In this document: in pieces, positions 25,999 through 58,135 of the stretch
How the letters are laid out: every line of letters starts with the position of its first letter
Numbering within the stretch: position 1 is the first letter of the stretch
Made by a program: the position numbers and the translations under genes
Assembly (NCBI GenBank): GCA_038087875.1
Contig: CM075989.1
Location: forward strand, 4,774,001-4,838,000
Direction of reading: 5' to 3'
DNA: 64,000 nt
DNA from: Malacoraja senta
Lineage: Eukaryota
Notes under the pieces: model-generated
The model's database searches: none
Told to the model about the DNA's origin: nothing
What the model saw: the letters and a program-made list of their open reading frames with translations, nothing else

Positions 25999-26740
25999 AT
26001 GTCAAGAGACAATAACGGGCTGACCGTCCGCAGCCAGCGGGCCGGCCTCAGGAATATTGTGCTGAATAACCCGAGGAAGCGGAATGCCTTGTCACTGGCG
26101 ATGCTGGAATCACTGCGCACAGACCTTCTCCACAAAGCAGAAAGCCATGAACTCCAAGTTAGAGTGATACCAGCTGAAGGACCTGTGTTCTGCTCTGAAA
26201 GGGCCAACGTCAATAAACGGAGGTGACCACCATGCCTGCGTGTTCACAGTCTGCTCTGAAGTGATGAGGTTGCTTCAGGACATCACGGTGCCGGTCATTG
26301 CCAAAGTGAACGGGCTGGCGACACCAGCAGGCTGCCAGCTGGTGGCCAGCTGTGACATGGCCGTGGTGTCGGACACGTCGCGGTTCGCCACGCCCGGCGT
26401 CACCGTCGGCCTCTTCTGCTCCACCCCAACCGTGGCCCTGGGCCAAGCCGTCCCTCGCAAGTTTGCCCATGAGATGCTGTTTACAGGGGAGCCTATCTCT
26501 GCCCAGGATGCCCTGCGGCACGCGCTGGTGAGCAGAGTGATCAAGGACAGGTTGGAAGAAGAGATGGTGAGGATTGCCGGCCAGATCTGTGGGGCGAGCA
26601 GGGCTGTCGTCACTCTGGGCAAAGTGACATTCTACAAGCAAATGGCCCAGGACCACAACCAGGCCTATCAGACCACCTCGGAGGTCATGGTGGACAAACT
26701 AGCGATGGCCAGAAGAGTTAAACGGTCTGGTCATATTCCA
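25999..26740 (+). pseudogene. ECHDC3: Processed pseudogene of enoyl-CoA hydratase domain-containing protein 3
   Basis: Intronless RNIVLNNPRKRNALSLAML...VPVIAKVNGLATPAGCQLVASCDMAV...GLFCSTP...EMLFTGEPISAQDALRH; frameshift near 26200 and disrupted C-terminus. Confidence 0.9.
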
Positions 26741-26868
26741 CCACCACAGAGCAACGTGACCAATAATCTGCTCTGGTATTTAGGTGCGTGCAAAGATCCA
26801 TTAAGTCCTTGCCCTGCAGATCTTGAAGAACGGCCAAGAAATTATATATAGATCTCTCTAACTTTCCT

Positions 26869-52519: not shown

Positions 52520-52870
52520 CAACCAATGATGGACCCATCCTTGGCCAATCTGATGCATCAATCAGCCAATCGCGGCTCTGGACCAATGGGATGGATTGGA
52601 TGTCCCGTACCATCCAATCAGCGCACGGTGCGCCTCGACATGGACCAATGAACGCCCAGCTTTCCATTGATTTTACCAATGAGCGCCCGGTGTACCGCAG
52701 CATTGACCAATGGGCAGTTAGCATGCTGCTGATTTGACCAATGAACGCACTGTGTACCTCGGCCTGGCCCAATCAGTCCATCAGCATGGCATTGATTTAA
52801 CCAATGAGCACACGGCAAGCTTGACCCTCGACCAACCAGCGCCTGGTAAGTCAGCGTTGCACCAGTGTCC
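52520..52870 (+). promoter_or_regulatory. Distal part of a 31-bp-phased CCAAT (NF-Y-type) box array upstream of TICRR
   Basis: CCAAT at 52583, 52614, 52645, 52676, 52707, 52738, 52769, 52801; CCAAC at 52832; extra unphased CCAAT at 52523, 52545, 52566. Confidence 0.75.
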
Positions 52871-52871
52871 C

Positions 52872-53723
52872 CATCCCCCCACTCACAACAAAGGCAGAGT
52901 CCCCCTAGTCCTCACCTTTCACCCCACCAGCCGTCACATACAACAAGTGATCCTCCGTCAGTTCCGCCACCTCCAACGTGACCCCACCACTCGCCACATC
53001 TTCCCATCTCCCCCTATGTCTGCCTGCCGCAAAGACCGCTCCCTCCGTAACTCCCTTGTCAATTCTTCCCTTCCCTCCCATACCACCCCCTCCCCTGGTA
53101 CTTTCCCTTGCAACCGCAAGAGATGCAACACTTGTCCCTTCACTTCCCCCCTCCACTCCATTCCAGGACCCAAGCAGTCGTTCCAGGTGCGACAGAGGTT
53201 CACCTGCATCTCCTCCAACCTCATCTATTGCATTCGCTGCTCTAGATGCCAGCTGATCTACATCGGTGAGACCAAGCGGAGGCTTGGCGATCGTTTCGCC
53301 GAACACCTCCGGTCGGTCCGCAATAACCAACCTGAACTCCCGGTGGCTCAGCACTTCAACTCCCCCTCCCATTCCGTATCTGACCTCTCTGTCCTGGGTC
53401 TCCTCCATGGCCACAGCGAGCAACACCGTAAATTGGAGGAAATGCACCTCATATTCCGCTTGGGCAGTCTACATCCTGGGGGCCTGAACATTGAATTCTC
53501 CCAATTCTGCTAGCCCTTGCTGTCCCCTCCCCTTCATCAGCCCTCTGGTTGTCTCCTCCCCTCCCCCAGCCCTCGGGCTCCTCCTCCGCCTTTTTCCTTT
53601 TTTCCTTTCTTCTCCCCACCCCCTATCAGTCTGAAGAAGGGTTTCGGCCCGAAACGTTACCTATTTCCTTCGCTCCATAGATGCTGCTGCACCCGCTGAG
53701 TTTCTCCAGCATTTTTGTGTACC
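52872..53723 (+). mobile_element. Young 5'-truncated Penelope-like element (GIY-YIG endonuclease plus terminal repeat)
   Basis: Open frame RVPLVLTFHP...CNRKRCNTC...FTCISSNLIYCIRCSRCQLIYIGETKRRLGDRFAEH...GLNIEF; perfect 15-bp TSD ttgcaccagtgtccc (52857-71, 53724-38). Confidence 0.95.
53626..53665 (+). ncRNA. Minimal type I hammerhead ribozyme-like core in the Penelope terminus
   Basis: CTGAAGA (53631-37), stem II GGG-tttcgg-CCC, then GAAACGTT (53651-58) with a palindromic AACGTT helix III. Confidence 0.6.
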
Positions 53724-53738
53724 TTGCACCAGTGTCCC

Positions 53739-53994
53739 TCGGTATCGACCAATCACCGCGCTGGGAGTCTGGGCCTGGACCTATGGGCGCTCGGTGTCCC
53801 TCGGACTGGGCCAATCAGCGCTGGGCAGGCATGAGCCGCGACCAATGGGCGATCGGTGTCTGCCAGCATCGACCAATGGGCACGGAGGAAGGGAAAAGGC
53901 GCCAAGAGCGGTTTTGAGGGAGACGCTGACGGCGACGATGATAATGGCGGCGACGACGAGCGAGTGAAGCGTCCAGCGCCGCACCGGCCGCGCC
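53739..53994 (+). promoter_or_regulatory. Proximal TICRR promoter / CpG island: phased CCAAT boxes and E2F-like site
   Basis: CCAAT 53749, CCTAT 53780, CCAAT 53811, 53842, 53873 (all 31 bp apart); GGCGCCAA at 53898-905; CpG-rich through exon 1; gccATGG Kozak context. Confidence 0.8.
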
Positions 53995-54594
53995 ATGGGC
54001 TGGCACAACGTGGCGCTGCTTGTGGACGTGGCGGGCGGGGATGGTGCCGGTGTCGGGGCGCGGCGGGCGGCGCTGCGGCTGCTGCTCCACTCGGCCCGCG
54101 GCGCCGGCTTCCCCGCGCTGCGCTGGGCCTTTAAACCCTTCAACACGGCGGCGATGAGGGGCTGCTCGTTCCGGGGCCGCGCGTTCCGGGAGCTGCGGCT
54201 GGAGCAGCTGCGGGAGCTGGAGGATGCGCTGGAGCCGGAGATGGAGCCGGGCCGGGGGTCGAGCACCTCCACCGCCACCGCCGCCGCCACCCACACGGCG
54301 CTGGTCGAGGCCCTGTCCGACCTGCCCTGGGACCGGCCCGACATCACGTCCCCGGCCAAGGCCGCCCGCGGAGCCGCCGCCCACGCCCCGCTACCCCGGG
54401 CCCGCAACACCCTCTACCTCCTCGCCCCCTGCCCCATGTCCCGGGCCCAGCTCCGCGCCTTCCTACAGCTCCCCCCTTCCGCCGCCGACACCTGTCACCA
54501 AGTGGCCGAGAGGATCGTCCCGCCGCCTGTCCGCACCCTGCTGACAGCCCACAACATCGCCCTGCACTGGGTGGACACCCAGCCCCTACAGCAG
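53995..54594 (+). CDS. TICRR: Treslin (TOPBP1-interacting checkpoint and replication regulator), coding exon 1
   Basis: MGWHNVALLVDVA...RRAALRLL...WAFKPF...FREL...WDRPDITSPAK...LYLLAPCP...WVDT matches my recollection of the Treslin N-terminus; donor CAG|GTAAAC, phase 0. Confidence 0.93.
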
Positions 54595-57417: not shown

Positions 57418-58135
57418 CTAGACTAAGTGGGACACGTTGGTTCCCATGTTCACACGGGAGGGCTGGTCCCCGAACGCAATATTCCACCTCTCCACCAATT
57501 CCAATATTGGGGGGTGTGGGGGCTTTCTAGAGGGCTGGTATGGGTGTTGTAGGCCGAAGGGACTGGTTTCCAGAGGCTAGTATGGACATTGTGGGCCGAA
57601 TGGATTCTTGGGCTGGCAGCTCAGGCTTGGTAGGCTGGCAGCTCAGTCACTCAGACCTGGTGGGCTGGCAGCTCAGTCACAGGCCTGGTGGGCTGGCAGC
57701 TCAGTCACTCAGACCTGGTGGGCTGGCAGCTTAGTCACTCAGACCTGGTGGGCTGGTAGCTCAGGCACTCGGGGCTGGTGGGTTGGCAGCTCGATTACTC
57801 AGGGCTGGTGGGCTGGCAGATCAGTCACTCAGGGCTGATGAGCTGGCAGTTCACTCACGGCTATTCCTTGAAATTCCATTTCAAGCAGAGTGCAGGCCAC
57901 CAAATTCAATTTCATAGCATTTCAAGCAGAGTGCAGGCCACCAAATTGCCAAACAACTCATTACATTGTCATTAAGGGCTAACAAATCATTTATTGCAAG
58001 TACTTTGCAGACTCGCAGTTCAGTTTATTCACAGCTTAGAATCACATTGTGGCCTCTCCATCGTGATCTTCCAGAGTGACTGACTCGCGTCCAGGCATCC
58101 GGGGTTTTATAATCCTGCCTTGCAGGATTATAAAA
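57418..58135 (-). mobile_element. Probable Helitron 3' end with internal minisatellite
   Basis: Minus strand reads imperfect hairpin GGGAACCAACGTGTCCC, 7 nt, then CTAG|T; ~30-bp repeats ggtgggctggcagctcagtcactcagacct at 57610-57860. Confidence 0.55.

Follow-up and report, generated by a model that had tools for sequence, protein, structure and literature searches.

The array of CCAAT boxes that lies directly upstream of TICRR is probably an old, single-copy minisatellite grown from a 31-bp CCAAT unit, in which selection for NF-Y binding is likely to have kept the boxes and an approximate three-turn spacing while the spacers decayed. This reading is drawn from the DNA sequence of this species, of its close relatives and of other arrays in the same genome, and on that basis we regard the array as real and likely functional. 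Dozens of other promoters in this genome have probably undergone the same process, with units near 25–26 and 30–32 bp.

Layout of the array upstream of TICRR

In the window (the whole 64,000-nucleotide stretch of DNA that was analyzed), the array consists of 14 boxes in direct orientation on the + strand, with a perfect CCAAT in 12 of them, CCAAC in one and CCTAT in one. They fall into two blocks. The distal block (52578..52856), which is single copy in the genome, has nine 31-bp units with CCAAT cores at 52583, 52614, 52645, 52676, 52707, 52738, 52769 and 52801 and a CCAAC core at 52832. The proximal block (53744..53881) has five 31-bp units with cores at 53749, 53780 (CCTAT), 53811, 53842 and 53873, the last unit being amplified in relatives. 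Within the blocks every step but one is 31 bp (11 of 12), the exception being 32 bp, and with 94 CCAAT on the + strand only about 3e-15 runs of eight boxes at 31±1 bp are expected by chance in the window. Three extra CCAAT boxes on the + strand, at 52523, 52545 and 52566 (52523..52570), are out of phase, with steps of 22, 21 and 17 bp. TRF detected the proximal block only, with a period of 62, and missed the distal block. Every core was found where the preliminary description of this DNA had placed it, as were the 31-bp steps with their single exception, and its claim that the series resumes beyond an insertion in another register was borne out, since the blocks lie 50 bp apart once the insertion is taken out.

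The open reading frame 3' of the array matches Treslin_N (PF21854, E 1.7e-29), in agreement with the earlier assignment of the downstream gene as TICRR. Its first coding exon (TICRR/Treslin, 53995..54594, + strand, by profile match) lies in a CpG island (GC 0.73, CpG o/e 0.92) and has a GT donor at its end. The array adjoins this island, and its last box is situated 122 bp 5' of the TICRR ATG, a distance measured to the ATG and not to a mapped transcription start. A regular-expression scan, using the general consensus motifs for E2F, CHR, TATA and GC boxes, identified a putative E2F-like site, GGCGCCAA, at 53898..53905 (no strand assigned), 25 bp past the first base of the last box. The same scan found no CHR, TATA or GC box in the stretch from the last box to the ATG; the CHR element that a G2/M CDE/CHR promoter has near its start was not found there in any of the variants searched. 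A putative upstream open reading frame of nine codons (53938..53967, + strand) precedes the TICRR start. The presumed first intron of TICRR holds a 30-bp tandem repeat of eight copies with 84% matches (window 57620–57858). Elsewhere in the window, an unbroken frame at 26168–26848 (+ strand) matches enoyl-CoA hydratase (ECH_1, E 8.7e-26); the frame, which we take to be ECHDC3-like, is possibly a retrocopy or a single large exon.

The two blocks are separated by a truncated Penelope-like retroelement (52872..53723, + strand) flanked by a 15-bp target-site duplication (left copy 52857..52871, right copy 53724..53738, both + strand), the insertion being 867 bp long including one copy of the duplication. 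The Penelope label given to it in the preliminary description fits the GIY-YIG match of its frame, though that match narrowly misses the curated threshold (E 2.2e-4, 21.9 versus 22.6 bits). The insertion is absent in all four informative relatives (B, C, D, and F), because the loose ends of their contigs pass directly between the blocks, and it is recent, having occurred in the lineage of this species.

The insertion itself was ruled out as the source of the register break, since relatives without it also have an irregular gap between the blocks; read from the loose ends, this gap measures 48 bp in B, C, and D, and F has the same 50 bp that separate the blocks of the window once the insertion is taken out. 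Inside the left copy of the target-site duplication is a junction (52862–52866) at which the sequence matches a unit, in comparison with the 53780 unit, minus 11 bases that include the end of the core. Based on this junction, we infer that an older 11-bp deletion, or about one helical turn, removed the end of one box and broke the register.

Core retention and change among close relatives

To compare cores with spacers, we used 12 of the 14 units in a nearly gap-free alignment from which both end units were excluded. Mismatches to the majority base were present at 2 of 60 core positions versus 102 of 276 spacer positions (binomial P 6e-10, or 2e-8 allowing for 27 windows). This P value states the case at its strongest, because the cores themselves served to find and align the array and the units depend on one another. 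Columns +8 (C) and +14 (G) are likewise invariant in the 12 units. The NF-Y flank consensus has purines at -2, -1 and +6 and either C or G at +5. The boxes of the array have a purine at -2 in 13 of 14 and at -1 in 12 of 14; in all 14 the letter at +5 is C or G and that at +6 is A or G, never another. Thus the preliminary description was right that most cores sit in an NF-Y-like context, the flanks fitting in 12–14 of the 14 boxes at each position, and that within the array the cores have been kept far better than the spacers.

The spacers are diverged and still recognizably homologous. Over columns +8 to +23 their mean pairwise identity is 47% versus 27% for shuffled sequence, and none of 5000 shuffles exceeded 33%, so that the units descend from a common ancestor by tandem duplication. 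The faint 62-bp alternation that had been noticed earlier is real but only partial, with identities of 69% within the A type of unit, 48% within the B type and 40% between types, the two classes having been picked by eye. Since the two types partly alternate, both 31-bp and 62-bp duplications probably took place.

Sequencing contigs of close relatives were aligned to the window, those of B, C, D, and E on the proximal block and exon 1, and those of B, D, and F on the distal block. These species are about 96% identical in exon 1, and for B 29 differences were counted over about 770 bases of exon 1 and part of the upstream sequence. An extra 31-bp unit is present at 52617–52647 in B and D, and the proximal end is 62 bp longer in B, C, and D. 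In E there are many short contigs at the proximal end, with a summed depth of 554 versus 39, this depth not being a copy number. Whole-unit changes in copy number are therefore found between species, and because relatives have gained whole units we consider the TICRR array to be a living minisatellite. The homologous spacers and these gains together sustain the minisatellite origin that had been proposed for it.

The phase of the array also varies. Starting at 52738, B, D, and F have a step of 33 bp followed by one of 31 bp, versus 31 and then 32 bp in the window; the step from 53749 is 29 bp in D and E; D has one base missing at 53828; and F has a 6-bp deletion and a 25-bp step. A 12-bp stretch at 52530 is missing from B and D. 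The box at 53780, CCTAT in the window species, is CCAAT in all four relatives compared there, and three distal boxes are damaged in F by an altered core at 52583, deletions through the 52801 box and an insertion at the 52707 box. Because relatives show steps of 25, 29, and 33 bp as well as damaged boxes, the spacing is best described as hovering around 31 bp, and the near-perfect series of the window seems to be partly particular to this species.

By our count there are about eight length changes in the array between species versus 34 substitutions. Three of these 34 variable sites fall in cores, which make up 70 of the 409 bp, where 5.8 would be expected, so that the sparing of cores is not significant among these close relatives (p 0.13); the count omits indels, nine rows upstream of 52583 and 11 further rows for the proximal region, and the deletions and insertion outside it destroy two more boxes in F. 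The insertion in F, at window 52708–52723, is independent of the Penelope-like element, and insertions are thus present within these 400 bp in two of the six species, which may reflect open germ-line chromatin.

CCAAT arrays elsewhere in the genome

Four exact CCAAT at 31 bp have 44 matches in the genome, and triples in NF-Y context have 131 matches at 30–32 bp, 124 at 25–27 bp and 33 at 35–37 bp. The low number of triples at 35–37 bp agrees with the human spacing peaks of 24, 31, and 41 bp; in the available text of the same source, CCAAT pairs have a main distance of 31 bp, further maxima at about 41, 52, and 63 bp and a minimum of 24 bp (PMC4982600), and the step of the TICRR array, which had been described as a known NF-Y architecture, is indeed this main published spacing. 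Raw match counts show nothing alone because the controls equal or exceed the CCAAT patterns: reversed patterns gave 1838 matches versus 1035, and 400 versus 131 for the 30–32-bp triples, and loci of a control motif (RCCATASR, 61 matches at 30–32 bp) are as numerous as CCAAT loci at that spacing.

We examined 78 genomic stretches. The CCAAT set consists of 35 distinct loci on contigs C1–C20, obtained from 21 at 25–27 bp and 16 at 30–32 bp, the latter counted after a 16-bp satellite and the seven copies of a single LINE had been excluded; these numbers of loci are lower bounds, being taken from 100 of the 131 and 100 of the 124 triples. The control set consists of 16 RCCATASR loci at 30–32 bp, with one 8-bp satellite and three near-duplicates set aside. 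Median spacer identity is below 70% in 12 of the 35 CCAAT arrays versus none of the 16 control arrays (p 0.01), and CpG-island-like sequence is present within 1 kb of 18 of the 35 versus 3 of the 16 (p 0.035; background in the window 17%). If the seven LINE loci are added as undiverged and not linked to islands, the difference in island proximity disappears (18 of 42 versus 3 of 16, p 0.13) and that in divergence persists (p 0.025). None of the four true 35–37-bp loci is diverged, and none is near a CpG island.

These controls bear on the possibility that the array is a neutral promoter VNTR, in which GC-rich gene starts breed minisatellites, the CCAAT is incidental and the retention of cores is an artefact of discovery. 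Such a VNTR would account for the free change of copy number among close relatives, for the cross-species core test (3 of 34, p 0.13), for the loss of one core (CCTAT) in the window species and for the fact that young arrays of the control motif are equally numerous, but the retention of core and flanks inside the array is far beyond drift, and a motif kept among diverged spacers was seen in none of the 16 control arrays. We therefore consider neutrality unlikely and favor a minisatellite whose boxes were kept by selection.

A genome scan for runs of six or more exact boxes, a check named in advance, found at least 14 other places besides TICRR at 30–32 bp, and many at 25–27 bp. TICRR is the most diverged of the 15 such runs found, with an ungapped median spacer identity of 28% versus 56–100% for the others. 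Of 373 candidate frames at 31 loci, 145 were scanned against Pfam, and six of them matched (HEXIM, MAP10_N, Ints3_N, HMG_box, GIY-YIG, and a weak Spt5 CTD), and four loci with seven to nine boxes at 30–32 bp (L045, L050, L051, and L065) are near HEXIM, MAP10, INTS3 and HMG-box coding sequence.

The preliminary description had gone further and taken all 14 boxes together as a single NF-Y scaffold, aligned on the helix and serving a role peculiar to a replication-initiation gene. Strict alignment would fit the 31-bp length that 11 of 12 within-block steps keep to the base although spacer identity is low, the exceptional divergence of TICRR among the long runs, a register break of 11 bp, about one helical turn, and an array that is uninterrupted in B, C, and D. 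Neither part of that reading held up, however: relatives have steps of 33 bp (B, D, and F), 29 bp (D and E) and 25 bp (F) and junctions of 48 bp (B, C, and D) or 50 bp (F and the window), two independent insertions have occurred, one of 867 bp in the window and another in F, and three distal boxes are lost in F, while a special role at a replication gene is unsupported in view of the long arrays near HEXIM, MAP10, INTS3 and HMG-box sequence and of those at 25–27 bp. We consider a strict scaffold of this kind quite improbable.

Other arrays in the genome differ in unit and in age. Four loci (L101, L106, L055, and L094) are young arrays of 18–21 or more NF-Y-type boxes at 25–26 bp, a unit near the minimal spacing for two trimers. 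One CCAAT array beside a CpG island (L031:2462–2772, - strand) alternates strictly between steps of 31 and 41 bp, or three and four turns. An identical 30-bp CCAAT triple recurs every 3.4–3.5 kb or so on the small contigs C526, C711, C1163, C2041, and C3325, which suggests a tandemly repeated unit. The genome also contains a LINE family with 32-bp CCAAT tandem repeats at its 5' end (L054:4419–8761, C1 around 186269730, with ten or more further places), whose copies are about 96% alike and carry an esterase-like ORF1, an endonuclease and a reverse transcriptase; the 5' repeats resemble a monomer-type internal promoter.

That LINE family, together with the 5–17 CCAAT repeats described for LTR12 in the available text of PMC11853044, lends some credit to the idea that the array is the relic of a mobile-element promoter (an LTR12 U3-like sequence or a LINE 5' end) captured by TICRR. 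The dispersed copies expected of such an element were not seen, as a genome search with the distal block (52570–52860) returned one match, the block itself, and the earlier view that the unit is not a dispersed repeat agrees with this single match, the absence of further matches being no proof of rarity. Moreover, the TICRR unit is by eye unlike the LINE repeat and the other arrays have unrelated unit sequences, and we regard capture as very unlikely. Hardly credible is a model in which each box arose separately by selected point mutations and no tandem duplication took place; it would suit the two end units at 52583 and 53873 (42% and 52% identical to the consensus, cores included) but is largely refuted for the inner 12 by their homologous spacers and by the unit duplications directly visible in relatives.

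Proposed function and relation to known systems

For the selected minisatellite that we favor, we propose that duplications placing boxes at a distance that allows two NF-Y trimers to bind together would have been retained, and that NF-Y would occupy several boxes together on one face of the helix. NF-Y would thereby keep the region free of nucleosomes and help to set the start site and the basal level of TICRR transcription; the extracts available of two papers describe NF-Y as maintaining a nucleosome-depleted region 5' of start sites (PMC6624317) and as a partner of E2F at growth genes (PMC3730095). At TICRR, E2F may perhaps cooperate through the putative site just 3' of the last box. The boxes would be additive and redundant in holding the TICRR promoter open, the proximal ones being the most important and the distal ones partly redundant, so that changes in copy number, shifts of 1–2 bp and insertions would be tolerated.

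A bolder and doubtful extension, which we put forward as speculation, is that cartilaginous fish routinely amplify an NF-Y site into promoter minisatellites with units of one footprint (25–26 bp) or three turns (30–32 bp), TICRR representing the aged end at which cores and phase are frozen. Each NF-Y trimer bends DNA by about 80 degrees, according to the accessible part of PMC4982600, and a row of trimers all bending it the same way could coil some 400 bp into a nucleosome-excluding promoter whose length tunes a factor limiting for replication firing.

The value of this locus is that it shows a homotypic cluster of transcription factor sites that would have been born as a minisatellite and aged into an array that looks designed, and every stage, from young and uniform through mixed to old and diverged, is present at other sites of the same genome. 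The differences between close species in box number, in phase by 1–2 bp and in insertions into spacers amount to natural alleles, which could serve to test if a promoter gains anything from more than two or three NF-Y boxes and if phase has an effect over long rows.

A literature search, for which most subscription journals lie outside coverage, brought up no description of a long CCAAT array at TICRR, nor of such arrays recurring among shark or ray promoters. TICRR, NF-Y, and CCAAT occur together in one paper on alligator oogenesis (PMC13274144, as far as its text was available). Neither the 31-bp spacing nor NF-Y minisatellites are new, since arrays at cell-cycle genes, ABO and LTR12 are already in print; precisely spaced arrays of boxes at cell-cycle genes, for example, are cited in the extract of PMC1802594.

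The known promoters with several CCAAT boxes bound by NF-Y (cyclin B2, CDC25C, and thymidine kinase, and the CCAAT dimers targeted by c-Fos), as far as the partial sources describe them, resemble the TICRR array in having boxes in direct repeat at 31 bp just 5' of a growth gene. They have two to four boxes, whereas TICRR has at least 14, which are tandem-duplicated and vary in number between close species. The minisatellite upstream of human ABO, a CBF/NF-Y enhancer, is likewise a repeat of the host, with NF-Y-bound CCAAT in its units and variation in copy number (PMC7187371, available text). In the same text it has four copies of a 43-bp unit, lies about 3.8 kb upstream and has a disputed effect, whereas TICRR has 14 units of 31 bp, strongly diverged and next to its first exon. 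The U3 enhancer of ERV9/LTR12 has 5–17 tandem units in which the CCAAT is conserved, with 14 in the globin-locus copy, where mutation of the CCAAT abolished NF-Y binding and closed downstream chromatin (available text of PMC11853044 and PMC3730095). As described there, LTR12 is retroviral, has thousands of dispersed copies and is built from a unit of about 41 bp, whereas the TICRR array is single-copy and built from a unit of 31 bp.
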